NCBI GenBank assembly: GCA_004431415.1
Contig: QPMI01000472.1
Location: 62,001 to 126,000 of the forward strand
Source: Cyanophora paradoxa CCMP329
Taxonomy: Eukaryota > Plantae > Glaucophyta
Length of the DNA: 64,000 nt
Reading direction: 5' to 3'
This document shows, piece by piece, positions 13,853 to 62,150 of the stretch. The position numbers were made by a program, and so were the translations under genes. A model generated the notes under the pieces. It was not told the origin of the DNA, made no database searches, and worked only from the letters and a program-made list of their open reading frames with translations. Positions within the stretch are counted from its first letter, which is position 1. Every line of letters begins with the position of its first letter.

Positions 13853-14891
13853 TTGACACTGAGAAATTCAGAATTTCAGATGGGCTTACTGAAAATGGTG
13901 TAGTAGGCACTTTAAAAATCGAAGTAGGCACTTTTTAATTGAAGTTAGGCACTTTTAATTGACGTTAGGCACTTAGGCACCTTTTCTGGAAATTCTCTAT
14001 AAAAACTAAAATCAACGTTTTGAAAAACACAAGTTGATGTATTTGGGACTTCTTTTTAATTCTCGATTAAGAAGTGCCTAACCGCCTAAACCGCCTACCA
14101 AAGATGCCTACTTCGATTGATCGATCGGAGACCATGCAACTCTGTGACAATTTTTCGAAGAGAAAATGCCCATCCCCAATCTTCTCAATTGTTTAATTGG
14201 AGACCATGCAACTCTGTGACACTTTTCAATGCAAAAATGTACATCAGCAATCTCATCGATTCTTTAATTGGACATAATGCAGTACCGATATATTCCAATA
14301 GAAAATCCCGCAATCTAATCGATTGTTTAATTGGAGATAATGCAACTCTGTGACACTTTTTGGGTGCAAAAATGTACATCCGCAATCCCATCGATTGTTT
14401 AATTGGACATAATGCAACTCTGTGACACTTTTTGCGTTTTTCGATACAGAATGGGCGGTGGTCCACTTCAATACCAAAGAGATATATCGAGTTTATGCGA
14501 ATTTATGCGAATTTATGCGAATTAATCGCGATTATATCGTTCTTTAAGTAGTTTAATGTTAATCAATCGAAGTTATATATGTAATCGACAAAGAACATAT
14601 TATATCGATATAATATCGATTGAATCAATCGTGAATATGCATTAAATTAAACGCGTTTATCATTTTTAATACAAAGTTTGCATTACTTTATACAAAGTTT
14701 GCATTATTTTATACAAAGTTTGCATTATTTTATACAAAGTTTGCATAAAAAGTTAAAGAAATTAATCGATAAATATGTATTTTAGTATTAAATTAACACA
14801 TATTGAAAAACGAATTTAAATCCAGAGTGAATCGAGATCGCGAAGTGATCGAGATGAACGAAGGGATTTAAATTCGTTTTTCAATATGTGT
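13757..14891. repeat. Right terminal inverted repeat region of copy A (~1135 bp) with internal tandem repeats and terminal hairpin
   Basis: 13757-13899 and ~14400-14891 are reverse complements of 32859-33001 and 31864-~32310; 28-bp palindrome arms at 14796-14823 and 14864-14891. Confidence 0.88.
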
Positions 14892-31863: not shown

Positions 31864-33001
31864 ACACATATTGAAAAACGAATTTAAATCCCTCCGCTTC
31901 GCGCTTCGCGCTTCGCTCCTGGATTTAAATTCGTTTTTCAATATGTGTTAATTTAATACTAAAATACATATTTTTCGATTAATTTCTTTAACTTTTTATG
32001 CAAACTTTGTATAAAATAATGCAAACTTTGTATTAAAAATGAAAACGCGTTTACCAAAATGCATATTTTCGATTAAACTTCGATAGATTCAATTGATCTT
32101 TTATCGATTGATTATGTACTTTGTTGTTTACATACAAATCTGCGATAGATTAACATTAAACTACTTAAAGAACGATATAATCGCGATTAATTCGCATAAA
32201 TTCGCATAAACTCGATATATCTCTCATGTATTGAAGTAGACCACCGCCCATTCTGTATCGAAAAACGCAAAAAGTGTCACAGAGTTGCATGGTCTCCAAT
32301 TGAACAATCGATTAGATTCCATATGTTCTATAAAACATAATAAATGAATTCAAGTGTGACAGGTAGTATTCAAATGATATTCAGTAAGAGATATATTTGT
32401 TTTTGAGAAAGTCAGTAAGAGGGGTAGAATGTCTGTGACAGGTGTGACAGGTGTGACAGGTGTTTTCAAAAGTCTGTCATTTTTGAAAAATTTAAAAAGT
32501 TTGAAAATAGGTGTCACACCTGTCACACCTGTCACACTCAATTAAACTATCTGTCACACCCGATCTCCTTACCATTTTCAGTAAGACAGAAAAGTATTCA
32601 TGAAATCGACTATTGTTGGGTGGATTTTGAAGGTGTCACACCTGTCACAAAGACTGTTTTCAGTAAGACAACAATAAATTCTTGACAATCTCAGTAATAA
32701 ATAGAGTCTTTTGTTAATTTGGTGTGACGGGTGTGACAGGTGTGACAGGTGTTTTCAAAAGTCTGTCATTTTTGAAAAATTTAAAAAGTTTGAAAATAGG
32801 TGTCACACCTGTCACAGGCGTCACAGTCAATTAAATAGGTGTCACACCCGATTATCGGACCATTTTCAGTAAGCCCATCTGAAATTCTGAATTTCTCAGT
32901 GTCAACTAACTCGGAAATCGCAATACTCTATGTTTCTCCGATTTCTCCAACCCTGAAAACACACCTGTTATTCTCTCATCTATCTCATGAGATACTCTCG
33001 T
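31864..33001. repeat. Left terminal inverted repeat region (~1138 bp) with terminal hairpin and GTGTGACAG iteron cassettes
   Basis: Reverse complement of the right end at its outer ~450 bp and inner 143 bp; palindrome arms at 31864-31891 and 31921-31948. Confidence 0.88.
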
Positions 33002-35312: not shown

Positions 35313-36686
35313 ATGGATATTACTTCGACCCTCCAACGTCTTTCTCTGAAAGAAGCTCTAACAACCCCAGAAGAAGCCAAGGCGTTCTTCTTGGACAACT
35401 CTCTCATGCTTGGTCTTGAATCCAAGTCGAAGCCAGTTCTTGTTGTTGTGAACCCAAGCAACACTTTTGAGAATAATGCTGGAAATCGCATTTCTTTCAA
35501 GCTCCCTCGCTACAATTTCTGTGGAAAACTCGAACTTGCGTTTGACCTTCCAGCTGTCACTTTTGCTGGTGATACCGACCTTGTTCGCAATGGATACGTT
35601 CGCCCAGTTGGTGCTCTTGTCTCTCGACTTGAAATCACCTATGGATCTTACACTTTCCATGTGCCTTCTGATTTCCTTGCTCATTTCCCTCTTATCTATT
35701 ACAGTGAGGATCAACTCGCCAAGAAGAAGCGTTCAATGGGAATGGTTCATGGTATCCCTGCCCATGGAACCAACCGACTTGGTGGGTCATTTTTCACTGA
35801 AATCCCAGTCCCATGGCTAAACCACTACCTACCTCTTGGTGCTCTCTCAGAAGAAATGGTGGTAACTGTCTGGTTCAAGGATGCTGGAAAGGGTTATGTT
35901 GAGACTTCTTATGGTGGTCGTGCTCTTCCTGTTGTTGGTGGAACAGCTGCTGATAAGACAGAGGATGATGGACTTGGTGCTACTGCTAATGCTACTCTTG
36001 CCCATGTTGGTCAACAGATCACCACTTTTGGAATTGGTGCAACAACAAACCCCGAAATTAAAGTCACTTCTCCTCGTCTTTACATGCATGCTATTAATGT
36101 TTCTGATGAACTGTTTGCTACTGTCATTGAGAAGGTGAAGACCACTGGTATGGCTATTCCTGCTCTGGATATTGGTTTTGTTGACAGTGTCAATTTTGCT
36201 GCAAAAGGCAATGCTCAACCAAATCGTATTAACCTGTCACAGATCTCTGGTCTTGTCTATGGTCTTCTTGTTTCAGTTCGTGATGCCGCAGGTATTGATG
36301 GTTTCAATGGTTCCCACAGTGTCCTAAAAACGCATGCTAACTCAAAAGACATCACTTTCACTGTTGAAATTAATGGTCAACGTCTCTATGCTACTGAGCC
36401 CATCCCTCTCCTCAAAGGTGCCGAATTAATTGCGGATGCCTTCAAGTGCTCAAATATGGACAAGGTTGCAGACAAATATGTCCTCAGTGGTCTACCATTC
36501 TGTGTTGATGGAGAGAAAGCGATTCGCAACATTGCCCAGTCTGGCTATGTTGATCTCACGAACTCCTCCTCTTCTTTCCTCACTCTATACATGCCTTCTG
36601 ACCAGACAATCACAGTTAATGTTCGTGCTCTCATGCACAGTTTCATTATTGTTGACAAAGATGGTCTCCGACGCATTAATCTGTAA
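35313..36686 (+). CDS. Major capsid protein (double jelly-roll, PLV type)
   Basis: 457 aa, beta-rich; ISFKLPR..F...L.L.FDLP, LVSRLEITYG, EIPVPW..YLPL.AL; lies between the pentons and the packaging ATPase. Confidence 0.8.
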   Translation: MDITSTLQRLSLKEALTTPEEAKAFFLDNSLMLGLESKSKPVLVVVNPSNTFENNAGNRISFKLPRYNFCGKLELAFDLPAVTFAGDTDLVRNGYVRPVGALVSRLEITYGSYTFHVPSDFLAHFPLIYYSEDQLAKKKRSMGMVHGIPAHGTNRLGGSFFTEIPVPWLNHYLPLGALSEEMVVTVWFKDAGKGYVETSYGGRALPVVGGTAADKTEDDGLGATANATLAHVGQQITTFGIGATTNPEIKVTSPRLYMHAINVSDELFATVIEKVKTTGMAIPALDIGFVDSVNFAAKGNAQPNRINLSQISGLVYGLLVSVRDAAGIDGFNGSHSVLKTHANSKDITFTVEINGQRLYATEPIPLLKGAELIADAFKCSNMDKVADKYVLSGLPFCVDGEKAIRNIAQSGYVDLTNSSSSFLTLYMPSDQTITVNVRALMHSFIIVDKDGLRRINL

Positions 36687-36748: not shown

Positions 36749-37531
36749 ATGAACGATTTGGAAGAATTTAATGCAGGCGAAATGATAACCCCACCATTTC
36801 GTGCTCTTTTCATAGGAAAGTCTGCAACAGGCAAGTCAGAATGTGTGAAATATTGGTTGAAACAGCTGCATGATGCGAAAAAGATCGATACTGTTCTTGT
36901 TGTGAGTGGGACGTCCTTCAATCATTTCTGGGATGCAGTTGCAACATTGCAACTCGGGAAATGGGATGCTGCTTACATTTCCAAATTACTGGATGAAAGG
37001 CAGGAGAAAATCGAAAAAGGGGAACCTGTGAATCAAATGTGTATTGTCCTTGATGATTTAATAGATAATGAGTTAGTCGATTTAACTCGCGATAAAATTG
37101 TTGGCTCTGTTTTCAATAGGGGGCGCCATGCGATGGTGTCCTGTGTCTGCATAACTCAGAAATTGCGTAAGGTTTCTTCAACAATTCGAGTAAATTCGGA
37201 TTATGCTGTGTTCCTGAGTGCTGCTAATCGCAAAGAACTCGAAGCAATTGAAGAGGAGTACAATATCATGCGAAACAAGGACGATTTCTATAAGATGTTC
37301 GAGGAATATGTACACTCCTACCAATATATTGTGTGGTCTTCTGCAAATTATTCGGTGAACTATTATGTTGATAAAGCGGATTTGGTCAAAGATTTCCCAT
37401 TTCCTCGGTTCCACAGGAAGCCCAAAAAGAAAGAAGATGAACTACCATCTCCACAGAAAGAGGAAGCACCCAAAGAGGTCAAGAGTGGTGTTCATTCAAA
37501 CAAACTGATGCGATATAAGAGAGGATTGTAA
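36749..37531 (+). CDS. A32-like (FtsK-HerA) genome packaging ATPase
   Basis: PFRALFIGKSATGKS (Walker A), IVLDD (Walker B), RGRH, ITQK, IRVNSDY. Confidence 0.93.
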   Translation: MNDLEEFNAGEMITPPFRALFIGKSATGKSECVKYWLKQLHDAKKIDTVLVVSGTSFNHFWDAVATLQLGKWDAAYISKLLDERQEKIEKGEPVNQMCIVLDDLIDNELVDLTRDKIVGSVFNRGRHAMVSCVCITQKLRKVSSTIRVNSDYAVFLSAANRKELEAIEEEYNIMRNKDDFYKMFEEYVHSYQYIVWSSANYSVNYYVDKADLVKDFPFPRFHRKPKKKEDELPSPQKEEAPKEVKSGVHSNKLMRYKRGL

Positions 37532-38756: not shown

Positions 38757-38984
38757 ATGGAAACTGAATCTGTGGTCGAATTCGAACTTGCAATGAGCGA
38801 AATGGATCCCAATGAGAGGAAAAGGTTGTATGACCGCTTGTACTTCCAGAAACGCTATCAAGATGAGGAGTTCCGTGAATTATATCGTAAAAAGGCACTG
38901 GAACGATATTATCGCAGGAAAGCTGCTGAGATGGATCCCAATAATCCAGTAAAACGCCCAGTTGGTCGTCCCAGGAAATACTGA
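38757..38984 (+). CDS. Small basic DNA-binding protein with C-terminal AT-hook
   Basis: KRPVGRPRKY C-terminus; upstream AAAAAATGA...ATTTAAGG motif. Confidence 0.65.
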   Translation: METESVVEFELAMSEMDPNERKRLYDRLYFQKRYQDEEFRELYRKKALERYYRRKAAEMDPNNPVKRPVGRPRKY

Positions 38985-39178: not shown

Positions 39179-41539
39179 ATGAACGCTGCCGCCAAGAAAT
39201 CCCTGAAACGCCTTGTTGACTGGCTTCGTGAAGACGATGTCCTGTCTGAGAATATCGTAATTCCTGTTGATCCTGATACCAAAAAGCCACTTTTCGCTCA
39301 TAAAGACGGAACCTGGACTTGGGATAAATTCGATGAAGCCCTGAAATCCGGTAAGTATACTGCTTGGGGCATTCTCGCTCGTAATATCATGGTAATTGAC
39401 TTCGACCAAGAGGAGGATTTCGCCAAATTCGAGGAGCAATTCCCTGATGATTTCGGTGGTGTCAATCCACTTGCTAAAACAAAAAAAGGATATCATGCTT
39501 ATTTCGCTCGACCTGCTGAATTCGACACCATTAAGATCTGGGATAAAGCAGGTGCATTCAAAGGAAACCCCAAGATCGACTGCAAAACGATTGCATCCAC
39601 TGGGACTGCTGGGGTAATTAATGTTTGTCCCAGTCCCAACAAAACATGGATCAGAGAGCCATGGGCATCTGAGTGTGAGTTAAATGAACCCACTGCTGAG
39701 TTGCAAAAGTGGATTGTTGAAAACTACGAATTCCCCAAAGGTGCACATTCTTATTATGCAAGGTGCGCTGAGGAGAATTTGCAGAAACATATTCTTTCTA
39801 AACTCGAAGAATTCGGTTTCATCTTGCCCACAATCATCAATGAGACCAAGATGGGATACAATTTCACTGCTGAGAACAAAGGTCTGATCTGTCCCTGCTG
39901 CAAGGGAAGCCATGACTCGAACAATTGGTATATTATTCAAGGAAAGGAGAAAGACAAGTACATTGTTTCGAGTTACAGTGCAAACTGCAAGAAGCGACTT
40001 ATCACAATTCGTGTAAAGGAAGAGACAGATGCGAATATCGAAAATCTGATTGATCGGTCTGCTGGATCTGATGGTGCCCATTATGATGTTGCACAGGTTG
40101 CCTATCTTGTTCTGCAAGACAAATACAAGTATTCCAACAAGACCTGGTTCAAGTTCAATGATGTATGTGGGATTTGGGAGATGGATGAAACTGGGAGGCG
40201 AATCTTTCTCTGTTTGAGCTGCAAGGTCTGTCCAGTTTATCTTCAACGTTCTGTTCAACTCGCACAGAGAGCTCTTCGTGATGAAGAGAACCGCAATTCC
40301 TTGGAGGAAAGGTCAAAGATTCTGCTGGGAATTGCTAAGAGCCTCAAACAGACTACATACAGAACTGCACTTATGTCTGATCTTTCAGTTCTGTTCAGTG
40401 ACAAGACCTTTTTCGAGAGACTTGATACTGTTCCCAACATCATAGGATTCACAAATGGTGTATTTGACTTGAACTCCATGACTTTTCGACAGGGACTCCC
40501 AGATGATATGGTGAGCAAGACTGTTGGCTACGATTATACCACAGAAATTGACCAAGAGAAGGTTGCAAAGATTAAATCCATCTATGCAGATCTGATCGAA
40601 TCTGATGAAAACCGCGAATTTATGATGGGATTAATTGCCTATGCTCTGTGTGGTTTGACAGAAAATCAGAGATACACTTGCTGGACTGGAATTGGAGCAA
40701 ATGGGAAATCTCTGCTCCAAGAGTTGGTGAAAGACACATTTGGTGAATACTATGGGTCACTGGACATGACATATTGGACTAAACCCAAGAAGAGTTCATC
40801 AGAGGCTGCCCCAGAACTCGCTTGCATTCTTGGTAAACGGATTGTTTTCAGTAATGAAGCAGAAGATGGTGATATGCTTCAACTGAACAAAATCAAACAA
40901 GTTACTGGTGGGAATGAGATGAAGGTTCGAACTCTATACAAAGATCTTGTAACATTCATTCCCATGTTCCAGTTGTTCTTGTCTACAAATGACAATCTGG
41001 GGATCAGTAAACCAGATGCAGCAATCCAAAGGCGAATTATCTACTACCGATTCGAAAATGTCTTCAAGGTCGATCCTCAGCCTGGTGAGAAGAAAGCAGA
41101 CATCACTCTAATGCGCCTAATGAAGAATGATGATGATTATAAAATGGCGCATATGTCCATTCTCCTGGAAATGTGGAGAACCCATTCTCTCAATGAATTC
41201 GTCACCAAACCACCCCAGTCCATTGTTGATCAAGGTATGGAGTATTTCAATGAGAATGACAAGATTGGAGAGTGGATTCGAGAGAATTATGAACTCACCA
41301 AGAGTCAAGGCGATTTCACTACAAGTGAGTCCATCATGAGTGACTTCAAGAGAGACCACATGGGCAAATCTGATGAGAAAATCTCAGATTGCACCATTAT
41401 GAAGAGACTTCGCGAAGTCTTTAATGTGAAGTCTGACAGAAAACGAGTGAATGGTGTCCTTGCTCGTGGTTACTTTGGGATCAAAAAGAAGCATGGTCGC
41501 AGATTGATGGATGACAGTGTTGAAGGTGGGGATGAGTAA
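39179..41539 (+). CDS. Primase-polymerase (AEP/PrimPol) fused to a D5-like SF3 helicase
   Basis: MVIDFD and TKKGYHAYF primase motifs; CPCC..H zinc site; IGFTNGVFDL D5_N; GIGANGKS Walker A; FSNEAE Walker B; IKQVTGG; AIQRRI. Confidence 0.92.
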   Translation: MNAAAKKSLKRLVDWLREDDVLSENIVIPVDPDTKKPLFAHKDGTWTWDKFDEALKSGKYTAWGILARNIMVIDFDQEEDFAKFEEQFPDDFGGVNPLAKTKKGYHAYFARPAEFDTIKIWDKAGAFKGNPKIDCKTIASTGTAGVINVCPSPNKTWIREPWASECELNEPTAELQKWIVENYEFPKGAHSYYARCAEENLQKHILSKLEEFGFILPTIINETKMGYNFTAENKGLICPCCKGSHDSNNWYIIQGKEKDKYIVSSYSANCKKRLITIRVKEETDANIENLIDRSAGSDGAHYDVAQVAYLVLQDKYKYSNKTWFKFNDVCGIWEMDETGRRIFLCLSCKVCPVYLQRSVQLAQRALRDEENRNSLEERSKILLGIAKSLKQTTYRTALMSDLSVLFSDKTFFERLDTVPNIIGFTNGVFDLNSMTFRQGLPDDMVSKTVGYDYTTEIDQEKVAKIKSIYADLIESDENREFMMGLIAYALCGLTENQRYTCWTGIGANGKSLLQELVKDTFGEYYGSLDMTYWTKPKKSSSEAAPELACILGKRIVFSNEAEDGDMLQLNKIKQVTGGNEMKVRTLYKDLVTFIPMFQLFLSTNDNLGISKPDAAIQRRIIYYRFENVFKVDPQPGEKKADITLMRLMKNDDDYKMAHMSILLEMWRTHSLNEFVTKPPQSIVDQGMEYFNENDKIGEWIRENYELTKSQGDFTTSESIMSDFKRDHMGKSDEKISDCTIMKRLREVFNVKSDRKRVNGVLARGYFGIKKKHGRRLMDDSVEGGDE

Positions 41540-41606
41540 ATAAAACGGAATCAATACTTAATACTGTGAATTTCTAATTTTTTAAAACCCTTACTGTAAA
41601 TGGTTT

Positions 41607-41712
41607 GTGTGACAGGTGTGACAGGTGTGACAGGTGTTTTCAGAAGTCTGAGGATTTTTAAAAATTTAAAAAAGTTTGCAAATAGGTGTCACACCTGTCA
41701 CACCCGTCACAC
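41607..41712. promoter_or_regulatory. Inverted iteron cassette (3x GTGTGACAG, AT-rich core, 3x inverted); candidate replication origin
   Basis: Lies 67 bp after the helicase stop; near-identical cassettes at 32434-32537 and 32722-32825. Confidence 0.6.
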
Positions 41713-42111: not shown

Positions 42112-45100
42112 ATGCCCCGCCAATCCAATAGAATCATCAAAGAGAAGAAAAACGAAATACTCGGTCTTTTAGGAACCCTTTTAGTCACTGGTGATATTAC
42201 AGAATTCGAATATGATCGCCAGGCAGCAATCTTGGATAGGAGACCAAGATTATCTCAACTCACAGAAATTACAAATCGCCTCTATGATCGTTTTGAGAAA
42301 ATGGAGGAATTCAGGGATGAAGGTTTAAGGTTGGGAACAATTGAACCCGAGATTGAGGATGGGGAAGCAATGAACAAAGCATATTCTTGGTTAACCTATC
42401 GAGCAAGAGGGGAGGTTATCCAAGATGGGATTGAATTCTTGGAGAGAATTGCAACCACTCTACCTCAGAGACTCAGACAGAAACTCCAAGACCTGAGAGC
42501 AATTAAGACTCGGTTGACCTTCATTTGTAAATTCACCAAAGTGAGTGATCCAAGGGTGTGGATCACCAAGTTCATTTATAGTGATTACTTTGTCATCACA
42601 AGATCACGAAATATTGATGTTGAACTGCGAAATGCCCTTCAATCCATGCAGGAGCAGATGATGCAGGTGGACAGTTACAGACTGGATCGCATTGAGATGC
42701 TGAGAGTGGTAATAATGTCTTATGCTCCTGTGGGTGGTTGCTTCTTCTCAACACCTGAGTGGATTGGATCAAAGAGAGCAACTGTGAATGTGAAGAATAT
42801 TGATGGTCAAGACTGCTTCAAGTATGCAATCTTGGCTTACCTGCACCGAAATGATATTAATAAACACAAGAGCAATGAACCCAGCCAGTATAGAAGATGG
42901 TTAAACGAACTCAATTTCGAAGGCATCCAGTTTCCAGTTGCCTGTGATGCAGAGGTTATTGATAAATTCGAAGAGCAGAACCCTGAACTGAGTATCAACA
43001 TTTATGGTGCAGATAATCAAGCACAGTGTTTCTATCCTCTCCATCAATCCAGCAACCCCAGGAGAAAGACCAAGATTAACCTTTTATTAATCGAAAACGA
43101 AGAGGATGATAGAGGGCATTATATCACCATCATGTCTCTGAGTAGACTTCTGAAAACCACCTTTGATAAAGCCCATGATGGTCGCATTTATTATTGTGAG
43201 ACCTGTCTGTCTCGTTTCAGAACTCAGGAGAAGCTGGATGTACATATAGAAGCGAATCGCTGCATTGATTGGAGGGAGAGCAAAGGTAAATGCCCGAAAT
43301 CTGGAAGTCACATTGCATTTGGGCTTCAACACCTTCGCAAAACTGTGTGGCTTCCCACTATCTGCTATGTAAAAATGGATAGTCACTCGGTTCCAATTGA
43401 TGAGAACCGCAGTAAAAGAGAGGTAAAATCGGTCTCTCTGACAGTTGTGATGGGGGATGAGGTGATCTCTCATTATTTCGAGGGATCAGATCCACTTGGT
43501 GATCTGTTCACCACTCTCACAGAGATCAGACCCAAGTAATCCGCACTCTATTCACCAATATTCCAATGCACCCACTCACAGAAGAGCAGAAAGCACAATA
43601 CAAGATCACTAAACACTGTTATATCTGTGCTGAACGATTTACCCATGAGAATTTCCCAGTGAGAGACCATTGTCATCAATCAGGAGCATTTATTGGGAAA
43701 GCATGCCGAAACTGCAACCTCCACAGGAGAATCTCAAAGCAAACGAAAGTAGCAATAGTGGTGGATCACATGGATGAATGTGGACACGAAATATTCCGCA
43801 AAATTGCACAGCAAGATGATAAACTTCGTGTTGAGATCCTGAGCACGAATTTCGATCAATACCTGTCCCTGCAATGGGGCATGTGGAAATTCATTGATGC
43901 TTCGCATTTCATGGACTTCCAGGCAGTGGATGCAAGTGATCTAATGGGTAAATTCCAGACATTCCGAGAATTGGCGTTTTCCCAATATGGATTGGATCCT
44001 GCCCACTATGTGAGCGCTCCTGGATTATCCTGGGATGCAATGCTCATTTATACCAGAGCAAAGATCGAGCAGATCAGTGATGTAGGGCAATACGAATTCA
44101 TTGAGAGAGCAATTCGAGGTGGGTTTGCTACAATGCCTACTCGATATGCAAAGGTGGAAAACCCAGATGACCATATAGTTCTCTTGGATGCAAATAATCT
44201 GTATGGTTTTGCTCTCAGTAAAGAACTGCCCATTGGCGATTTTCGATGGGAAGATGTCACAGAGGCACTTAAAGAGACCTCTGGACGAAGTGCTTTCATT
44301 GAAGTAGACCTGGAATACCCACAAACTCTCACAGATCATTACGATTTTCCACTTGTAGTAAATAAAGAGCAAATCAGCACCGAAATGCTGGGTGAGTATC
44401 AACGAAAACTACTGGATATCACAGGTGAGAAGATAAGCAAAGACCCCAAACTCACAGCAACATTCTCACCCAAAAACAACTATGTGATCTCCCAACCTCT
44501 CTTGGTCTATCTTGTGAGCAAAGGTATTATAATTAAGAAGGTTCACAGGGTTCTCTCATTTGCAACCTCTGCATTCATGAAGAGTTATATTGATCTAAAT
44601 ACGAAACTGAGGCGCCAATCTGTCACCAGATTCGAGTCTGACTTCTTTAAATTAATGAACAATGCAATCTATGGTAAATGCCTCGAATCATGCAGGGGTC
44701 GATCTGTGGTAAAGATTGCTAACAGTGAGAAACTCTGCAAGAAATATGCTGCAAGTCCATTGATCAAGGCAACCGATGTATTAAACGAAAATGCTGTTGC
44801 CTTTGAGATGTACTCAAAGCATGTTCACTTAGATAAACCATTAGCAATTGGTGCTTTTGTGCTGGATTTCGCCAAACTCCATAATAGCAGGTTCTTTTAT
44901 GATGTGGTGAGGAGAACTTGGGAAACAGCAGAGCTGCTGTTCCATGATACAGATTCTTTCTGTCTACTGCTGCATACCAATGATCTAAATAATGAGATGA
45001 AGCGAATTGCTGAACACCTGGATTGCAGTAATTATGATCCAGCCCACCCTCTCTTTGATAGGAGTAATCGCTTGATTCCAGGTAAATATAAAAACGAGTT

Positions 45101-45392
45101 CCCCCATGCAAAGATTGTGGAGTATGTAGGTCTGAGATCGAAACTCTATGCTTTCAGAACTGAGACCTTTGATAAAATAAAAATGTCTGGAACCTCCTCA
45201 AAAGAGGTTTACTTTGATGATTTCAAGAGATGCTTGTTTGAAGGCATCACCAAAACAGTAGCAGTAGTAAACAAGCGAAGACAAGACCACAACCTATATG
45301 ATTTGGAGAGCAGAAGGGTGGCTCTAAACCAACTCGATAGCAAAAGGAAGATATTAGACGATGGAATTCACAGCATTCCATTTGGGCTCTAA
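42112..45392 (+). CDS. polB: Protein-primed family B DNA polymerase with N-terminal extension, C2H2 finger and endonuclease VII-like insert (1-nt frameshift near 43535)
   Basis: CFKYAI, CETCLSRF..L..H, CYIC...RDHCHQSG...G.AC..CNL, YGLDPAHY, DANNLYG, KLMNNAIYGK, FHDTDS. Confidence 0.93.
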
Positions 45393-45575
45393 TCTACTTC
45401 ATTAATCTTTCTTTTTCTTTGGTTTCGCTCTCCAAGAAGTAATAAACCGCGAATTAAATGCAGCAGCCAAATACATCTTAATCCAGGATCATTGGGCTCG
45501 ATTGCAAAATAGTTTGGAATTGTGTTCTCTTTCCACACAGACTCTTGCATTTATTATATGAGAGATAAGGTAAAG

Positions 45576-46973
45576 ATGCCTTCAACACAAATAGGATTGA
45601 GACAACCACCAAGAATTGTGAGAAAAGAGGCAATTGAAGATCGAGGGAATATCCTGCCCATCACAGTTCCAGTGGAGGAGAAGAGCAGTCGAATATTAAA
45701 AAGATCAGAGATGGTCAAGCAATTAATCCAGAGACCCTCCCAGCTGAGACAGCAACAAAAGAGTCAAAGATTGCTAAGAAGTTCTATGATCCCAGGACAG
45801 GCTACAAAGGATTTACTGCAATGAGACAGGAACTACCAGAGGAGAACTACAAGAAGATGAGAGAATGGTATGATAAGCAGGAGGTTGTCCAAATTAATGC
45901 ACCCACTCTATCTCGAAAGAGAGATCCCATGATTCCAATTAGGCAACCCCTTGATACATATGTGATTGATCTGCTCTTCTTTCCTGCATACAAAAAGCAG
46001 AATGATGGTTATGATACATTTATGAGTGCAATGGAATCAACCCTGAGAACAGGGTTCATAATTCCAATGAGAGACAAGAGTGCTCTTACTACTCTTGCAG
46101 CATTCAAGCAACTTGAACAAAGAGTCCCAGACCGATTGTTCGCATTCAGAGTGATAGTGGAAGCGAATTTACCAATGTGCTATTCACAGATTATTTGGGA
46201 ACCAAATTCATAGAGCATCAACTAAGTGATGTTGCAGATCACAGAACCCAAGGTCGAATTGAAGCCTTTAACAGACAGATCAAAAGATTGATCACAAACT
46301 ACTGCATTGCAAATAATACTGCACGATTTTTTGATGTGTTGGGTGATATTGAGTATAATTATAATAATACCATTCACTCTGCAACCAAGAGAAAACCAGC
46401 AGAGACCACAGAAGCCCACTACAAAGAGATTGTGAATATGGAGGATCAGAGATTCAAGAAATCGATCGAATATCTTGATGCCCTGAAACCTGGAATGTTT
46501 GTGAGAGTAAAAGTTGAAAAGAATCCATTTGCAAAGCAGGGTGTTAATTGGTCTCGAATTGTTTATAGTGTGGAGGGCAGAGAGGGCTTCAAGTTCAGAA
46601 TCAGAAGTCCAAGTGGTGAGATAGTTGATGGTAGATTCGCTTTTCATGAACTGCTGCCCATCAAAGGTGTTGAGTATCATGAAACTCCCACAGTGGATGC
46701 CCTTGAACATGCAAAGGAGGAAGCCAGGGTTGATTCTGCAATCAGAAAGGAGGGCATAGAAAAAGCAAGTGAAGTACCAAAAGAACCCTCACAGAAGCAA
46801 GAGCACAAAAGAAGGGTAGAGTAGAGAAGGAATTAAAGAAGTTGACCATAGCAGGAACCCAGAAATTATCAGAAGTTAACAGTCAGAGGTGGTATAATGA
46901 CTTTTCAACCACCAAGGAAACATATACTGCACCCCAAACTCGATTTAATCTACGAAGTGGGCAGAGGAAATAG
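45576..46973 (+). CDS. rve integrase, copy B (several 1-nt frameshifts)
   Basis: Near-identical to 884-2284. Confidence 0.88.
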
Positions 46974-46974
46974 A

Positions 46975-47217
46975 TTAACAACGCTTTCGGAATCTCTTAG
47001 ACCTCTGGCGAATTCTCCTCATTTGTCTATCTTTTTCAAGAATTTCCAAGAAGAAAGTTTCAAGGTTTGAGACCAGCTGGTAATTGTAAACAAAGAACAG
47101 TCTCACATGCTCTGGCTGTGACATGAAGAAATTGTAATAGAAAGCAGTTTTGAAATCATGGACCCAGTCTGATTGGGCAGCATGGATGATAGCAGGGTCT
47201 TGGTAGATGGGATCCAT
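46975..47217 (-). CDS. Small hypothetical viral protein, copy B
   Basis: Identical to 2286-2528. Confidence 0.5.
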   Translation of the reverse strand: MDPIYQDPAIIHAAQSDWVHDFKTAFYYNFFMSQPEHVRLFFVYNYQLVSNLETFFLEILEKDRQMRRIRQRSKRFRKRC

Positions 47218-47378
47218 AGCAGAAGTTGAGAGAATCCAGAAAATCCTTGTCAATTTTTTATTTTGTTAGTGCCCGATCTCAACGAAACACGAACGGCGCT
47301 GTCGAGAGGATTCCGAATCTGTTTTCAGAATTGAAAACGGAGCAGTTGGTAATAAAATACATATATATGACCGATATT

Positions 47379-47901
47379 GAAGTTTCGGTGAAGTTTCAAT
47401 GAAGTTTCGGAGCGAAGTTTCAATGAAGTTTCGGAGCGAAGTTTCAACGAAGTTTCGGAGCGAAGTTTTTATGAAGTTTCGGTGAAGTTGCGAATGACGT
47501 CATGAGTGTCTTTTCGGTTCGCGAATAATTAAGTGGACATGGCGGCGTCCCGTCGTTTTTTGAAGAGGTGTCCTCGAAAATGGTGCCCCGTCATTTTCGT
47601 GAAACGGTGTCCTCGAAAATATATCTTATCCTGTTGAAAAAATGGTTGCTCGTCATCGCAACCATCATCGCAACCATGGTTGCATCATCGCAACCATCAT
47701 CGCAACCATGGTTGCATCATCGCAACCAGGTTGCGCAACCACTCAATCGGAAAAAATTGTGTGCGCAACCACTCAATCGGAAAAAATTGGTTGCGCAACC
47801 AGGTTGCGCAACCAGCGCAACCATGGTTGCATCATGGTTGCATCATATCGCAACCATGGTTGCATCATTGCAACCAGGTTGCGCAACCAGTATGACGTCA
47901 T
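47379..47901. repeat. Intergenic short-repeat region, copy B, with expanded GCAACCATGGTTGC palindromic array
   Basis: About 145 bp longer than copy A owing to extra catcgcaacc/atggttgc units. Confidence 0.85.
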
Positions 47902-48358
47902 GACATCACGAGTTTCATGACAAATATATATACCATACATTTCGTGTGACACAGAAGCCCCAGTCGCCGACCGACCAATCCGCTATTTTATGGTCAAAAT
48001 GTATATATGCGCATATATACTTGACGGTTCGCGTTACCACTGTCGGCATCGAATAACGTTCCTACTGTGGTGCTGTCGGCATCTTCAAATGCTTGTATCT
48101 CGTCACCAGAACATCGGATTGCGACCGTCGACATAGCGCTGGAAAGCGCTTGCAAAGACCTACACGACAATATAGGTGTCGAGTATATATATGTATATAT
48201 ATCATACATATATTTCGAAAAAACGACTTGTCGGCTACTTTCTACTGCAAAGAACATGCAGTAAAATAATGCAAAAATACAGTAGCTACTGTAAAAATCG
48301 CCATAATGTGGGCGAAGATACAGTAGCCACTGGATCATACGTCAGGAATTCTGAAATA

Positions 48359-49899
48359 TTATACACTTCGAATAAATGCACCTGTGACATCCACTCTCAT
48401 AGTTGGGGTGTTGATGTATACAAGTGGATAAATTCGAATATACCTTGTCCTCAGAGGGTAGCCAATATAGAAAACGTCTTTAATAGAGGTGGGATACCCA
48501 GAACTGTATGAGACATCACCACTGTTGTGGGCATTATTGATAGTTTCACACATAAACACTCTATTCACACCTTCATACTTGATAAATGACCAGGAAACAC
48601 CATCTTGTGATGTTGCAACATTGAAGGTCTTAACAAAGGCATTTGTCACACCAGAACCATATGCAATTATAGATGCTACCTCAAATATATATGGGAAGGA
48701 TACTTGCAGATACTCAGTGGGAACACTCCATATTCCATCAGGAGCAGATGCATTTGCCTCCCAACCTGTTAATGATGGTCTTGCTTTAAATGCCTCCCTT
48801 CCAATTTTCGATGATGAAGCAGTGAATGCACCATCTGATAGAAGATACCAGTTAGCATCAATGGAGGTATGCTATTCAGAGTGGATGATATATAGAACCT
48901 TGCAGGGTTCTTGATTTCGTAATTTGCAACCAGTAAATCACAGAGTCTATCAATCATCACAGTGTTTGCTGCTATGTACATTTCGGTTGCATCTATCATA
49001 TCTGGGATCTTAGAGGTATCATCCAAAGAGTTTACTATGGTCTTTGGAAGTGGAACAGAGAGTCTATAATATCTTGCATATCCTTGATCATCATTGTATG
49101 GGAGAAACTCTTGCATCTTTTCCAGAGCAGACAGTTCACTTGCAGCCATCAACATATTGATTAATGGACTTCCAGAGGTCGAAGCAATCCAAGAGAGGAT
49201 GCCCCAGCTGTTCACATCTTCATAAGAGTAACCCACATTTGGAGCATCTGTTTCATTGACTTCACCACAGGATATACTTATCACTATAATATCATCATCA
49301 TCATCATAGATCTTCTTAGCATGACTGTAACCACAGACACTGGGATTGTTGTTACCTGAGATTGCACCATCAATTAGAGACATCCCATCATAGTTCACAG
49401 GTGAGAAATATGTTGGAGCAGCAGAGGTAGATCTTGCAGCAATCTTGCTGGGGATGGATTTGTAGGAGTTATCATTGGTGATAAAAATGGGCTTCATACT
49501 CACAGTGTCAAAACTTGTGATCACTACATCTTTCAGAGAGTCTTGAATGAGAGACTCACCAGTAACAGTAAGAATGGCTGTCTCCAATGGGGTCACATCA
49601 TACTTGGTGTTGAAGAGTGCATTATCAATAATATTTCGGGGATTTGCAAAGATTAAAGGCAGTTGATTGAGATAAGTGGAATGCAAATCGGTTGCAGTGA
49701 GTTTAGGTTCGTTTGGAAATTCGGGATTTTTCACATTGAGACCAATCGCAATTATCCCACCAGTGGATGTTCCACTCACCAGATCAACAAGGTCAATTAC
49801 TCTTTTTCCTGTTCGAGTTTCGATTTCTTTAAGCAATCTCGTAATAATTATACCACGAGCTCCCCCACCTGAGAGACTGAGGCAAATCTTCAAAGGCAT
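48359..49899 (-). CDS. Patatin-discoidin phospholipase, copy B (1-nt frameshift)
   Basis: Duplicate of 3523-5064. Confidence 0.86.
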
Positions 49900-49926
49900 T
49901 TTGTCACTTTAACATTGACGGATATT

Positions 49927-50637
49927 TTAAGAATTGTTTACTAATCGGTAATCCTCATCAAACTTTAACAAGTTTGCACGAAATTCCTTTGCCTTTGAAA
50001 ATGCATCTTCCTCTGTGTATTTTTTAAGTGTGAACCGTTTCGAATGTGTTTTCAAATTTCCAGTGTCATCTTTAATTGTTACAATAGCGCAAATATACCA
50101 AACATTCCATCTCTTGTCAAACGATTTGAAAATGTTCGAGGATTCATGAACAAATTTCCGATTGATTGAATTTACCCTCTGAGATACAATTCTGAGATTC
50201 TGTTTCCTATTATCAGATCTGATCTGATTAATGTGATCAATACATTCTTTTTTGCTTTTCCCTTCATACTTCATTACAGCTCTATGCATATGTCGAAACT
50301 TGCATGTGTTTGATGAAACATAACCATTGTGCGAATGCCAAATATGAGAATCCAGAATATCAAAGTCTTCCACATCAATTAATCCAAGAACATCATTCTG
50401 AGTTGTGAATTCAATCGTTTTATCATCAACATATCGATATTTGTTAAACACTTTTCCCTGTGCAATACAAACTTCTTTCAAAGCACTTTCGGCTTCATCT
50501 TTCGTATCAAATCGCTTTTCCTTTCTATTACCGATTTTGTCAAAATACTTCATCAACCACTTCTTTTTACAGTCTGTTCTTTTTGAGAGATAGACAGTTC
50601 CACCATACTTTGCGATGTTATCACTGTAAAGCCACAT
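49927..50637 (-). CDS. HNH homing endonuclease, copy B
   Basis: Identical translation to 5092-5802. Confidence 0.88.
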   Translation of the reverse strand: MWLYSDNIAKYGGTVYLSKRTDCKKKWLMKYFDKIGNRKEKRFDTKDEAESALKEVCIAQGKVFNKYRYVDDKTIEFTTQNDVLGLIDVEDFDILDSHIWHSHNGYVSSNTCKFRHMHRAVMKYEGKSKKECIDHINQIRSDNRKQNLRIVSQRVNSINRKFVHESSNIFKSFDKRWNVWYICAIVTIKDDTGNLKTHSKRFTLKKYTEEDAFSKAKEFRANLLKFDEDYRLVNNS

Positions 50638-50761
50638 TTTGCTCCGTTACTCCTCCTTATAATACTTATCCTTAAATACTTTTTGACATCATTTTTTGAG
50701 GCGAAGGGGCATCTTTACTTAACTCAAATGTAATAAATCTCTATAAGTAGAGTAAACAGGG

Positions 50762-53700
50762 ATGAGTTTCAATTATCCAGCAAACCTACAAACCATTCCC
50801 TCATCAGGAAGAGGGAAGACAGATAACAAACATGTAAATTTCGATAACTTGACAGCCAGAGGGTCAATCTCAATTGACCACAGTGCAGATGAACCCTCAA
50901 AGACTCACCCAAGAGAGCATGCACTTTCAATAAACGAAATGGATCCCGAAAAGGAGGATGTGAGTGTTGCTTTCAGCATGGGAAATGTGAAATCGAATCA
51001 GGTAGCCCAGATTAAAGCAACCAGGAGCAGACCAAGAAAACTGAAAACCAGTGGAACCCACCCAGATATTCCAACTCGATTCGATAGTGGTAGGTTAATA
51101 TTCAATGTTCAAAATGAGAAGGGTGGGCATCAGAGTGGTTTGAGAATCTATAATGAAGGATCAAATGCAATTGCACAAATTCCCGAAATATTACAGATAG
51201 CCCCCATGGAGAAACCAACAAAATCGAGTTCACTAACAATGTTTATCCAAGAGATATTGTGGAGAATGCGGCTTCTAATGCGCAATTCGGTTTCCAACTA
51301 CCTGGTGATACAGCAAAGAATAAGGCGTCTATCACTGTCAACAGTAGCCCCACTCAATCAGTAACAATTCATTTACATCCAGACCTTGTCGAAATGGATA
51401 GACACCTTTTACCTTTGGTGACAAACACCAAAGATCTTGGTATTAGAACCAGACAATGGCGAAATATCCATGGAAGCAATGTCTATGCAAATGGAGAGAA
51501 ACTTGTAAGTGAGAAGACCATAAGAGAGATCTTTGAGTATTATGGACCTGTCCCAGTTCCCTTCCCACTACCATGGATCCACCAGATTTAACACCGAAAA
51601 AGCAACCAGGCAGAGAGTACACAGCAGATGAGACAGTTCCTTTTGGTCAACACATTGTGAGTTGGGAGCAGGTTCGAAATAAACCTATAATTGAACCAAG
51701 AAAGCAAATTGATGAGCAATATTTACCTCCTGAAATCGATATTTTGGAGCTTGACGAATACCAGTTCGTTCCAGATGAGGAGGAATACCTTCCTGATGGT
51801 TTCGACCCACAGGAGTATGAATATGATCAATATGACCCCAATGAGGAAGAGTATTTACCAGATGGTTTAGATCCACAAGAGTATGAGTATGAGCAAAATT
51901 ATGAACCCCATGAGGAATATTTAGCAGATGGTCACGAACCACCAGTTGTGGATTATGAGCAACCATATGAACCCCATGAAGAATTATTACCAGATGGATT
52001 TCGCCAGAGATTTGGGAATTCTTCCCTGATTGGGAGCAGATCAACAATAAACCAGCCAGATTTCCACCAGAGGATCACAACCATGACTGGGATGAGATCT
52101 TAGGTAAACCAGAGAAATTCCCACCAGAGGATCATAGGCACGATTGGGAAGACATTGATAATGTCCCTCTCACATTTACACCATCTACACATCGTCACAT
52201 TTGGAGCGAAATAGACGAACAGCCAGTTTTTGCACAATTAAATGCAATCGGAAACGTTTTTAATGGGGTCACACTTTACCAATCGATTAATATACCTGAA
52301 AGGCTATTTTTGAATGATCATTATGTTAGTCTCAATGGGTCATTTACAGGTCAAGAAGGCACACCGATGGTGGGAACTCTTGCAGTAAGATTACCCAGGG
52401 ATCCAATCGTAAATGGAGTGTATAGTGGTGATTTCAACGTAGGAGTGAACGATACTTTCCCCAGTATTTATGTTACGAATTATCACCCAGGGGAAACAGG
52501 ACAAGTAGCGGATTTTTCAGCAGCTATTCAAGTAAATGTAACGGATCAAAGCGCATATGATGGAGCAAGACCTAAAATAGTTTTCACAAGGGAGAAAGTT
52601 GTAAACTATCTTCCTGTTGCAGGACAACCCACAGATGATCACGGTAAATGTGAGATGGCGTGGATTAAGACAACAACAGGTGGCGCCTTAGAAGTCAATC
52701 AGAGAATGGCGGCGAAAAACTTACATAATACAACCCTTTCAGGAGTGGTTACAGATGATTACCTAACCAATAAAGGATATCTTACCTCAGCAGATTTAAG
52801 CACTTACACAACCGATGCAGAATTAGCGGCAGCACTTGCGAATTATCTACCTCTCACAGGTGGAACTGTAACAGGAACTGTGAATGCTACCACTTTACAA
52901 ATTGGCGGTAACACAATACCGAAAGGTTTCGATTTTGACCAATTAGATACTGTTTCGACAGATAGAAGCGCAAATAATTGGACTGTTAATTGGACAGGAC
53001 ATAGAACGGGACAAACAGGATGTTACACCACACCTGAGAATGATGCAGATGTTACGGGTTGTTGGATGCGTTGGGCAATACCAGAAGGTATGAAATCGTT
53101 TTATATTCAACTTTTAAATTGGCATAATTGTAGATATTTCGATATTTACGGTGAAACTGTTAATGGATATCAGCATTTCTTAAAACGTGTTAATCACTAT
53201 CAAGCAATACAAGATAGCGGAATTCAAGATGGTACCTATAATGCTATTATCTATACTTCTATAAACTGTGATTTCTATAAAAAGATTGTGGTAAAAGGTG
53301 TGAAAGGTCGCATTTATTTTACGGGTGTGTTTGGTTGGAGTCGTCAGAGAGCAACCGATAATGATGTTGGATTAATTCATTATGATAATATCGCTTTTAA
53401 TCCTGTCGGCAAATATTCCGATTTCGATGTGGTGAGTGGTTGGAATAGCACAGGTGTATCATTCCAGCCGGAGCTTGGACAACAGGATGGAAACCCACAA
53501 CAGATAACCCAGTGGAAGGTTTTTATAGCAACCAAATAGATGATGAAAGTGGTAGTGGGTATATGCAATGTCAAGTGCCGGCAGGAATGAAAACATGTCA
53601 CATACAATACTTATGTTGGACAAATCACAGATATTTTGATATTTACGGATACCGCAACAGTCGATGGAATTATATTATGAGAGTAAATACGTATCAAAAT

Positions 53701-55742: not shown

Positions 55743-55745
55743 TAA

Positions 55746-56051
55746 ATGGCGACCTATCCACTTGGTGGAACCACCTATTCTACTGAGCCTGTTGCGCTTT
55801 CTTTCGATACAATCACCCTTGTAAACGCATTACAAACAGTTGAAAAAACGATTCAGCAAACTAACAAACTGTCACCGGTTGTTCATGAATATAAAAACCT
55901 CTTGGTTAATGTCCTTGCGCAATCGGCTCATGGTGACCCAGTAAAAAAATATGGTGAATGTGATTCTAACCTCAAAGCGATGACATCCAACATCCAATGT
56001 CTAACAACCGCTTACCAATCTCTTGGATCCAATCTAATTGCTTTGGCTTGA
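55746..56051 (+). CDS. Hypothetical viral protein, copy B
   Basis: Identical to 10914-11219. Confidence 0.65.
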   Translation: MATYPLGGTTYSTEPVALSFDTITLVNALQTVEKTIQQTNKLSPVVHEYKNLLVNVLAQSAHGDPVKKYGECDSNLKAMTSNIQCLTTAYQSLGSNLIALA

Positions 56052-58684: not shown

Positions 58685-59723
58685 TTGACACTGAGAAATT
58701 CAGAATTTCAGATGGGCTTACTGAAAATGGTGTAGTAGGCACTTTAAAAATCGAAGTAGGCACTTTTTAATTGAAGTTAGGCACTTTTAATTGACGTTAG
58801 GCACTTAGGCACCTTTTCTGGAAATTCTCTATAAAAACTAAAATCAACGTTTTGAAAAACACAAGTTGATGTATTTGGGACTTCTTTTTAATTCTCGATT
58901 AAGAAGTGCCTAACCGCCTAAACCGCCTACCAAAGATGCCTACTTCGATTGATCGATCGGAGACCATGCAACTCTGTGACAATTTTTCGAAGAGAAAATG
59001 CCCATCCCCAATCTTCTCAATTGTTTAATTGGAGACCATGCAACTCTGTGACACTTTTCAATGCAAAAATGTACATCAGCAATCTCATCGATTCTTTAAT
59101 TGGACATAATGCAGTACCGATATATTCCAATAGAAAATCCCGCAATCTAATCGATTGTTTAATTGGAGATAATGCAACTCTGTGACACTTTTTGGGTGCA
59201 AAAATGTACATCCGCAATCCCATCGATTGTTTAATTGGACATAATGCAACTCTGTGACACTTTTTGCGTTTTTCGATACAGAATGGGCGGTGGTCCACTT
59301 CAATACCAAAGAGATATATCGAGTTTATGCGAATTTATGCGAATTTATGCGAATTAATCGCGATTATATCGTTCTTTAAGTAGTTTAATGTTAATCAATC
59401 GAAGTTATATATGTAATCGACAAAGAACATATTATATCGATATAATATCGATTGAATCAATCGTGAATATGCATTAAATTAAACGCGTTTATCATTTTTA
59501 ATACAAAGTTTGCATTACTTTATACAAAGTTTGCATTATTTTATACAAAGTTTGCATTATTTTATACAAAGTTTGCATAAAAAGTTAAAGAAATTAATCG
59601 ATAAATATGTATTTTAGTATTAAATTAACACATATTGAAAAACGAATTTAAATCCAGAGTGAATCGAGATCGCGAAGTGATCGAGATGAACGAAGGGATT
59701 TAAATTCGTTTTTCAATATGTGT
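58589..59723. repeat. Right terminal inverted repeat region of copy B
   Basis: Same as 13757-14891; hairpin arms at 59628-59655 and 59696-59723. Confidence 0.88.
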
Positions 59724-62150
59724 GTTCCTCTCGCGCGCGTCCGACCGACGGAGTCCTGTCGGCGCGCAGCTGGGGCCCCTCTCGGACGTCACCCCCTCCC
59801 CCACCGACTTCGCCTACACCTCCTACACCCCGTTCCCAGGGCTGGTGACTGCAGATTGCTGAGTAAGGCTGAGCGCCGATGCTGACAGGTCCTTGCGCCG
59901 CAGGATCTGGACGTGCGATCCCGACCGGGCGACGGGGAGTTTTTCCAGTCGATGTCGGTCTGGGCCGACCAGTCTTTCACCCGCACATCCGTCCCAACGG
60001 AGCTTATAGGCTCCGCCGCCGGCCGCTACCAGTCGGAATGCTACTGGGGGCGAGACTGCTTCGTCTGGTACGTCCACAACTGGTTCTCCTTCGCGTACTC
60101 TGGGTGCCCGCGCTGCTGCAAGGTTTGCTGCGCACTTCCCGTTGCCCCCCGTGTTCTCGAGCCGAGCCTCCCGCGTGTGCAGCCCGACGGCTCGACGAAG
60201 TACGAGAACGTGGACGTCTGGCCTGCCGACTTCTGCACGGCCGATCCGTGGCGCTTCATAGAGGTCGGCCGCAACTTCTCCACGGACGAGCGGTGCGCCG
60301 CTCCGCGTCCCGGCCGCATGCGAAGCTGACGCGGGCTTCGGGCCGAGCAGGTGGCTGCACACGACGTGGGGCCGGGAGATCTACCTCATAACGGCGGCCA
60401 CATCGGACGTCAATGACGGAGAGGGCTTCGACTGGCTCGGCGCCCTCGGGACCATCTTCATGATCGACGTCTCCCCCGACGGATATGCCTCATCCTACCT
60501 CCTGCACGTGCGCGCCAGTCGTTTGGCGTGTTGTCGCCGCCGAGATCAGACGCTTGTGCAGGCCGAGGCGCTCGGCTACGGGCTCAGCCGCAAGGTGGAC
60601 CTCTCCTCGACTTCCCTCTACCCGTTCGACACCAACACGGCGCTCAACTGCGCCCTCTGTGCGACCGCCTCTGGCCGGTCCGACCGCGATCGCGAGTTTG
60701 TGACCCGACCGGCTTCGCGCAGGGGCCGACGAGGGATCAAGCACGGCAATGATGCACGACCAGCAGATCTTTGCCTTCTGGCAGGTATGAGCAGCCTGCC
60801 CCGGTGTCCCAGATCCGCCGGCCTCGACATGGTCGGCCTCTCGCAGAGGGGAGTGGCGTATTTCGCTTCGTACGTCAAGTTCCCGAGCAACACCGTCGAG
60901 CCCCGCATCCGCCTCTGCCACTTCGGCGGAGTCGTCGAGATCTCGTTCGACGCGCACCTCAGCTCGATCACGCCCGTGGACCACTCCAACGAGGGCTCTG
61001 CAATGTACAAGTCCGAATGGTGAGCCGCCCGCCTGCGCCGCTCAAGTTTGCACTTGAATTAATTCGAGGTCGCGCTCAGGTGGCAGCGCAACGCGGAGGC
61101 GATCCCGCCCGGCGCCGTGGCCCACGCGATGGCTGCCGACGGGCGCGTCGAGGCCGACGGGCCCCTCATCTACCACGCCATCATCCGCCACCCTTTCTTC
61201 CCGACCGGCGCGTGCCCGGAGAGCTTCCAACGCGACCTCTCCTGCGCCGCGTTCAACGTCTCGCACGTCGTTGCCCGCTGGAGCTTCGCCGTGACACCCT
61301 CGACGGGCGAAGCGACGCTGCTGCGCCCGCCGTCCGTCATCCTCGCTCGCTCCGTCAGCTGGTACGGTGCGTGTATCGCAGGCGTTTCGCACGCGGGTTC
61401 GCCAGCTGTCGCCTTATCTTATCGTTTAGACACCTGGATAATCCAGAACGAGAGACCGGGTGTCGCCGGCCCCGGATCGGCGTGCGTCATCTCAGATCCC
61501 CAGCCCTTTCTTTGCGACCTCCAGATCTTTGATCCTTCCGGTTGATGCAGGCGCTGGAAGGGAAGTGGGTAGAAGGCCGCCGCCACTCGTTCTACGTCCT
61601 GGGCGACGAGGTCGTCCGCTTCAGCCGCCCGGGGGCCTTTGAGTCGGGCATCGGCGGCGTCGAGAGCGGCCGCATCCGCCTGCAGCCAGACGGCTGGTCG
61701 CCCACCCTGCAGGGCTGGTACTCGGTCCCCGCCGCGGTCTACAAGAGCGGATCCCTCTTCATCGTCCGCGAGCTCCACACGGCGAGCAACACGAAATCGT
61801 ACCCCTGGGGCCTCTCAGACTTCGACGCCGGCCCCATCTGGATGCTACCATCGAGCCGCCTCCGCAAGTTGGTGTGGCGCTCGAGGTCAACCCACCTGAT
61901 CAAGGTCCACTGCCTTCAGGCCGTGTCCTTGGGCTGCTGATCATGAGCGCGGCCCACAGGTCGACAACGTCGACGCCGCGACCTTCTCTGGCCCGTTCAG
62001 CGTTGTCATCCCCTCCTTCGCGCAGGGCATCATGTGCCTGCATTGCTTGCGCTCGCATAACTGGCCGCCCGTTGACCCCTGCGCGCAGAGGCGCGCACGT
62101 GGTGGGCGATTTCAGCGCCCGGGCGCGCTTTAACGACGACCCCGCAAACA
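59724..62150 (+). pseudogene. Duplicated 5' portion of the host cysteine-rich gene, broken at 62150
   Basis: Matches 14892-17319 and diverges abruptly after ...cccgcaaaca. Confidence 0.75.

Follow-up and report, generated by a model that had tools for sequence, protein, structure and literature searches.

The locus raises the question of what function is served by a set of short opposed repeats that directly follows the primase-helicase gene of a polinton-like element in the genome of Cyanophora paradoxa. The window, by which is meant the entire stretch of 64,000 nucleotides analysed, carries this set three times; features lie on its forward strand unless another strand is stated. The explanation favoured here, with a probability of about 0.72, is that the segment between 41607 and 41712 is an origin at which the adjacent primase-helicase loads itself, of the type known from SaPIs, P4 and pRN1, and that it has been copied into the end of the element.

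The internal cassette (41607..41712, no strand assigned), the candidate origin, consists of three 9-bp units, an AT-rich core of 52-56 bp and three inverted units. The GTGTGACAG units, which contain the word TGTGACA, start at 41607, 41616 and 41625 and are thus phased by 9 bp, the inverted units occupy 41686-41712 with a single mismatch in the outermost one, and the core (41633-41686) is 72% AT. The distance from the stop of the helicase reading frame (39179-41539) to the cassette is 67 nt. Two further copies, likewise without assigned strand, were found near the left end of the element. Copy 1 (32433..32537) is followed by an extra unit at 32551 and copy 2 (32722..32826) by an extra unit at 32839, and both are 88-91% identical to the internal cassette. 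A 15-bp anchor motif stands beside the internal cassette (41590..41604) and recurs in inverted form behind the extra units of the left copies (32571-32585 and 32859-32873). The preliminary description had reported the 3+3 layout, the two additional copies and the inverted recurrence of the motif, and all of them were borne out with these coordinates.

The arrangement was well separated from chance. The 24-mer pattern, with up to three mismatches allowed, matched 9 times, and none of 100 shuffled sequences contained it. A strict detector of phased units, in which periods of 8-11 were permitted, found exactly these three cassettes in the window, and shuffling the element 60 times produced none. 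The cores of the cassettes are 72-75% AT and represent the 99th percentile of weakest stacking energy within the element. The 3' end of the helicase gene was continuous with the first array in contigs from all four public sequencing runs of the one organism, which excludes faulty assembly as the source of the arrangement; these contigs carry either the form of the window or a diverged form with 16-17 changed letters and 6 gaps per about 228. A metagenome scan for the cassette together with part of its core gave no match. These results confirm the presence of three inverted, 9-bp-phased TGTGACA cassettes with AT-rich cores.

The cassettes reside in an integrated element of 27.9 kb (31865-59724) with terminal inverted repeats and a GC content of about 40% against about 65% in the surrounding DNA, where it adjoins LINE-like genes. 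Its size (within 15-30 kb), terminal repeats and GC contrast are those of polinton-like viruses, and so is the set of A32 ATPase, pPolB and/or primase-helicase, and integrase, the last with a weak match below the cut-off. The A32-type packaging ATPase is encoded at 36749..37531 (PF04665, E 1.7e-11), the protein-primed family B polymerase (pPolB) at 42112..45392 (PF03175 with a weak Endonuclease VII match), and the rve-type integrase, in two pieces, at 45821..46824 (PF00665, E 0.002). Polinton-like viruses typically have a major capsid protein of the double jelly-roll type; a putative major capsid protein of 457 aa (35313..36686) was assigned here by its size and its position next to the ATPase. 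A eukaryotic proteome collection contains a homologue with 59% identity, and searches of Pfam, PHROG and the sequences in the PDB gave no match. The element also has genes for patatin, an HNH protein and AdoMet decarboxylase. Membership in the SaPI/PICI islands, which are bacterial chromosomal elements with a tyrosine integrase and phage-satellite genes, was rejected, as the element carries pPolB, the A32 ATPase, the rve-type integrase and terminal inverted repeats. A search for polinton-like contigs with the ATPase returned only the contig of the query itself.

The copy in the window may be inactive, given its split pPolB and integrase; the former is broken into two reading frames near 43500-43566. 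The parallel protein-primed replication from the termini that had been proposed is accordingly not supported as stated. The flanks of the two element ends do not match, and this absence of a shared target-site duplication fits a recombinant copy. Positions 1-17319 are a near-identical duplicate of 44693-62150 (17.3 kb), comprising the right part of the element with 2.4 kb of host flank, which is either a segmental duplication or an assembly artefact; the integrase duplicate within it (866-2284) forms a single frame of 472 aa. Several other features were observed in this region. A basic 75-aa reading frame without Pfam or PHROG match lies immediately 5' of the helicase gene (38757-38984) and ends in a GRPRK motif, which we take to be AT-hook-like. 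Tandem 24-bp repeats occupy the long intergenic region past the integrase (47366-47506 and 2677-2817), the duplicated host flank terminates in 107-bp tandem repeats with internal palindromes (62183-62582), and the host DNA at 26198-29576 encodes LINE-like reverse transcriptase and endonuclease reading frames.

The gene preceding the internal cassette (39179..41539) encodes a primase-helicase of 786 aa with a Prim-Pol domain and a D5-type SF3 helicase (Pfam PF09250, PF08706 and PF19263); a search of viral contigs revealed no close relative. An AlphaFold model based on an alignment of 100 sequences had a mean pLDDT of 88 and predicted a C-terminal winged helix at about residues 695-770 with a wing hairpin at 752-766; a strand, two helices and a hairpin at 713-770 were modelled with pLDDT of 85-96, and the model of the isolated C-terminal domain was poor (pLDDT 59). 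Structural alignment of the full model gave Z 34.6 for ASFV C962R and Z 31 for poxvirus D5, extending to residue 772-777. SaPI5 PriRep (7ola/7om0) aligned with Z 28.7/28.4 within residues 281-762 of the model; the match with Z 28.7 had an rmsd of 5.4 over 396 aligned residues and covered 281-758. The N-terminal part matched the Prim-Pol domain of pRN1 ORF904 (1rni, Z 13.5), whose domain order is shared. The helicase is thus predicted to have a fold like that of SaPI5 PriRep down to the C-terminal domain. None of 16 proteins (the helicase of the window and 15 relatives) matched Pfam Pox_D5; support for the winged helix comes from the model and from the way it aligns with experimentally determined structures. 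In the diverged copy from the same organism, reading by hand placed four of the listed differences in the wing codons, all of them silent; the copy has 46 further differences beyond those listed.

Cassettes downstream of D5 helicases, for which a survey had been suggested, were searched in a collection of 273 loci, 6 of which had no usable stop. The 195 distinct loci included 5 with less than 400 bp of downstream sequence, and 190 were tested. Four of them were detected under strict settings, all with a period of 9 bp although 8-11 was permitted, at 17-109 bp past the stop (L206 at +17, L234 and L241 at +30, L274 at +109); the background was 2 of 883 windows. A degenerate cassette at +191 bp in L209 was detected only when two mismatches were allowed. 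In a FastTree phylogeny of the ATPase domain (217 sequences), the helicase of the window fell into a clade of 23 members with a support of 0.923, which comprises 17 proteins without DNA, the window, L206, L234, L241, L274 and L209. A 9-bp-phased cassette consequently follows the helicase stop in all five clade loci with DNA (four strict, one relaxed). The remaining 185 loci, of which the majority are giant-virus D5 contigs, gave no match with the strict detector. The five loci represent three lineages besides the window, each with its own word. When inverted repeats were scored without any motif, the same five ranked second to sixth of 190. The position of the cassette after the helicases of this clade is non-random. 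The polinton-like nature of the clade loci was judged by eye from gene content, with a Pfam match for the L206 ATPase only.

Some other loci of the collection were noted. The first rank in the inverted-repeat score belonged to L246, in which a perfect 45-bp inverted repeat without iterons lies within 350 bp past the stop (4017) of a giant-virus D5 gene. The entire contig of L209 (1-9950) is an inverted duplication, either a hairpin end or an assembly chimera, and a loose-detector match at +296 in it was dropped as an artefact of the palindromic contig. A weak loose match at a giant-virus locus (L018/L019/L104, +82) overlaps the end of another reading frame, fails the strict detector and was rejected.

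The preliminary description had further suggested testing whether the iteron varies together with the C-terminus of the helicase. The helicases of L274, L234 and L241 share 86-90% identity in the body of the protein. L274 and L234 have a common word and are 91% identical in the last 32 columns, and L241 has another word and is 66-72% identical to them in these columns. The phage L004 has the same word as the window, and the two wings (DRKRKGGVLMRVW in L004 and DRKRVNGVLARGY in the window) are nearly the same despite a C-terminal region that is only 21% identical. When 15 prokaryotic proteins linked to TGTGACA were searched for a wing pattern chosen after the data had been seen, 4 had it, two of which are kin; none of the 355 control helicases did, nearly all of which come from eukaryotic viruses and almost none from bacteria. 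The pattern is suggestive only. Word and wing residues thus change together in one trio and agree in one phage, a small set, so that a setting of iteron specificity by the wing may be proposed.

The ends of the element carry more than one kind of cassette. The outer terminal inverted repeats (31865..32326 at the left; 59208..59724 at the right, reverse strand) are 80% identical where 31861-32326 aligns with 59208-59726, and an inner inverted block of 143 bp (32859-33001 versus 58589-58731) is 100% identical. At 32859-33001 this block carries the 3' terminal part of the AdoMet decarboxylase gene (58283-58684). The left cassettes sit between the outer and inner blocks and have no mirror copy at the right end; the wording that placed them in the left terminal inverted repeat could thus not be upheld. 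The two ends agree up to the final base of the 15-bp anchor motif and diverge immediately after it. At the right end (58717..58942), the motif (58717-58731), 33 bp past the stop of another gene, is followed at the mirrored place (58736-58942) by a different cassette, which comprises five TAGGCAC-type units, a core of about 90 bp with 74% AT and four inverted TAGGC-type units. A second copy of this motif and cassette is found at 13885..14110 inside the duplicated segment 1-17319. No helicase cognate to the TAGGCAC cassette was found in the window.

The element contains 11 copies of the 7-base head of the anchor motif, compared with a mean of 2.5 and a maximum of 6 in shuffles, and 7 of the 11 adjoin cassettes. 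The orientation of the core relative to the motif is opposite in the internal and the left copies, and in other copies from the same organism a different sequence stands immediately before 41589, seen as loose ends in at least three of the four runs. We infer from this arrangement that the origin cassettes may be exchangeable modules behind a fixed anchor, copies of which were placed at the element end. Since the right end still bears a cassette of another helicase specificity, the present copy is probably a mosaic of two replicon types. At 58945-59270, the right end also contains four repeats of about 70 bp with one TGTGACA each, and one such unit lies at the left end (32275); these are possibly extra binding sites.

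The TGTGACA cassette extends beyond the element. The exact 24-mer was found in 11 viral contigs, three pairs of which are near-identical. In 7 of the 11 it lies in, or at most 250 bp from, the 3' end of a D5-type or AAA_25 primase-helicase gene; two others have it at about 2.1-2.3 kb past a primase-helicase, one in the gene preceding DnaB and one as an unrelated coding repeat. A shorter pattern of two units gave 64 viral loci and added D5, VapE, DUF3987 and NrS-1-type neighbours; many of these loci, and about half of the 34 bacterial loci with the 24-mer, carry the units in a single orientation and are for the most part repeats within coding sequence or products of chance. Where a bacterial locus has at least four copies per orientation, it follows a DUF927, VapE, D5 or Toprim gene in 6 of 7 cases. 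The loose detector also caught the annotated rep_origin of Lactobacillus phage A2, directly 3' of a D5-type primase.

By analogy with SaPI5 PriRep, P4 alpha and pRN1 ORF904, we infer that the helicase would bind the cassette, load, melt the DNA and prime. The winged-helix tails would bind the 9-bp-phased units, and two helicase rings would load, one on either side of the core. The loaded rings would then melt the AT-rich core, and the Prim-Pol domain of the same protein would prime synthesis. The earlier reading of a helicase-loaded origin is in this respect partly supported, by the position in the clade, the predicted PriRep-like fold and the co-variation in a small set; its placement in the terminal repeat and the parallel protein-primed replication are not supported as stated. 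Several points weigh against an origin. The clade test covers three independent lineages besides the window, and the clade has 17 members without DNA. The wing pattern was chosen after the fact and occurs in a minority of the TGTGACA-linked proteins. TGTGACA goes with unrelated helicase families (D5, VapE, AAA_25 and DUF927), an association that might equally be due to a factor of the host or one held in common. In phages, cassettes are also found distant from the helicase, before terminase genes. The winged helix is without Pfam Pox_D5 support, the TAGGCAC cassette is without its helicase in the window, and the element may be inactive.

Other explanations agree with part of these results. The origin may be read by its shape, so that the arms extrude as a cruciform or hairpin and the Prim-Pol helicase assembles there, as has been proposed for pRN1. 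As RNA, the internal cassette indeed folds as a long stem with about -55 kcal/mol and z -6.1, a variant middle unit is mirrored in both arms in L234 and L241, the domain order is that of ORF904, and the origin of pRN1 is described as needing the integrity of its stem but not its GTG motif (PMC4234260). We nevertheless consider this mode of reading unlikely. The constant 9-bp phasing across unrelated words favours recognition of the word, extra single units lie outside the stem, word and wing co-vary, and the arms of the TAGGCAC cassette are poorly paired when folded. The mirrored variants, too, may come from exchange between arms: L234 holds two cassettes (1643-1749 and 2261-2367) flanking one small reading frame, the second 649 bp on; the flanks of the cores are in direct orientation, and the core of the second cassette reads exactly as the reverse complement of that of the first. 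The same RNA folding, together with the position 67 bp past the stop and that of the right-end motif behind another gene, would suit a hairpin terminator, a polyadenylation signal or an operator for self-repression at the helicase transcript. Such a role is very improbable, as the left copies stand close behind no gene and an Rfam search of the element gave no match. In giant viruses, the hairpins that signal the end of transcription follow most genes; a cassette-type hairpin follows only 1 of the 16 genes of the element, and a signal of the giant-virus type was rejected. The mutual similarity of the three copies (88-91%), two of them in tandem, and the iteron-free palindrome at L246 would be expected of a small selfish or inert MITE-like repeat copied inside the element. 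This explanation is just as improbable, because the host part of the window, with 65% GC, contains no TGTGACA cassette and an equivalent layout with unrelated words occupies the corresponding position in three other lineages.

A signal for the genome end or for packaging, recognised by the packaging machinery or another protein, would make the position after the helicase secondary. Two of the three copies and the second type of cassette are indeed near the element ends. With the 14-base TAGGC-type pattern, moreover, 4 of 80 loci (3 distinct phages) had an inverted cassette, all immediately before terminase genes, where several phage TGTGAC cassettes are also located, distant from the helicase. 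Cassettes at such places were observed in L395 (3300-3720), L450 (3280-3600), L452 (3280-3730) and L342 (3500-3775). They are either displaced origins or packaging signals. A DUF5906 SF3 helicase is encoded in all three terminase-side records of at least 22 kb (3 of 5 searched, the two misses being records that are 22-31% complete), so these cassettes may be displaced origins; the helicase genes of three terminase-side phages are followed by no iteron remnant. The cassette also adjoins the 3' end of the helicase rather than the ATPase in the five clade loci. The packaging explanation is consequently given little probability.

The self-loading origin thus remains the preferred reading. A wider proposal, which we advance tentatively and consider rather doubtful, is that viruses of this clade use phage-type iteron origins, each with its own wing and word, and that cassettes are swapped at the anchor motif. 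The copy in the window would then have been caught in the middle of a replacement, with the origin of the new helicase at one end, that of an older helicase at the other and pPolB decaying. What appears to be new is a phased iteron cassette as candidate origin in a polinton-like virus, the origin type itself being known from phages and plasmids. The result supplies a candidate origin of 105 bp and a candidate reader, the wing of 15 residues, together with natural controls in the second cassette of the same element and in the three helicases that share 86-90% identity and have two words between them. If the reading is true, the self-loading module of helicase and iterons operates not only in phages, satellites and plasmids of archaea but also in a clade of viruses of eukaryotes, the core D5 genes of the sampled giant viruses keep no such cassette behind them, and a molecular handle is available on the replication-module turnover proposed at polinton-like virus ends.

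The replication mode of polinton-like viruses is left open in the text of PMC10120064, and for most of them it is stated to be unknown in bioRxiv 10.64898/2026.07.28.741278. PMC11296320 proposes that inverted repeats are the origin for the primase-helicase of polinton-like viruses and that mobile helicases invade the termini and replace pPolB modules; it describes a repeat of more than 300 bp common to the terminus of Gezel-14T and a site downstream of its module. Iterons do not occur in its main text, and its supplements may show repeats. Among titles and the beginnings of abstracts, outside subscription papers, no iteron origin in a polinton-like virus was found.

The closest likeness is to PriRep5 and the ori of SaPI5. 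According to PMC9371898, the origin of a SaPI immediately follows rep; its iterons face each other across an AT-rich region and form the binding site of the winged helix. SaPI5 iterons are described as 7 bases with a 2-base spacer that are read by the wing hairpin (bioRxiv 10.64898/2026.10.17.759575). Similarly, the present locus combines a fused primase-SF3 helicase and a predicted C-terminal winged helix with a candidate ori directly downstream, in which iterons of 7+2-base spacing oppose each other across an AT-rich core, and the structural match reaches Z 28.7. Unlike SaPI5, it stands in a eukaryotic virus context with a Prim-Pol primase, the candidate ori measures about 105 bp versus about 300 bp, two extra copies lie near one end and a second type of cassette at the other, and pPolB and an integrase are present. 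The SaPI likeness given in the preliminary description therefore applies to layout, position and predicted fold; the element is not a SaPI, and the layout is not peculiar to SaPIs but belongs to a broad type of phage and plasmid origin.

The combination of Prim-Pol, SF3 helicase and winged helix with an inverted element of about 100 nt 3' of the gene is shared with pRN1 ORF904 and phage BIP-1. The origin of pRN1 is a 100-nt stem-loop 3' of orf904 that functions when displaced, and in PMC4234260 it is described without iterons, whereas the arms in the window are phased repeats. The P4 primase-helicase binds its origin repeats through a winged helix (PMC4234260), and binding in the window would be analogous. 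As in phage A2, the candidate origin follows a D5-type gene and has inverted arrays around an AT-rich core; unlike in P4 and A2, whose hosts are bacterial, the words differ, and the P4 primase is of the Toprim type. Compared with the end-module hypothesis of PMC11296320, whose main text gives no binding word, the present element has a phased cassette and carries two types of it at its two ends.
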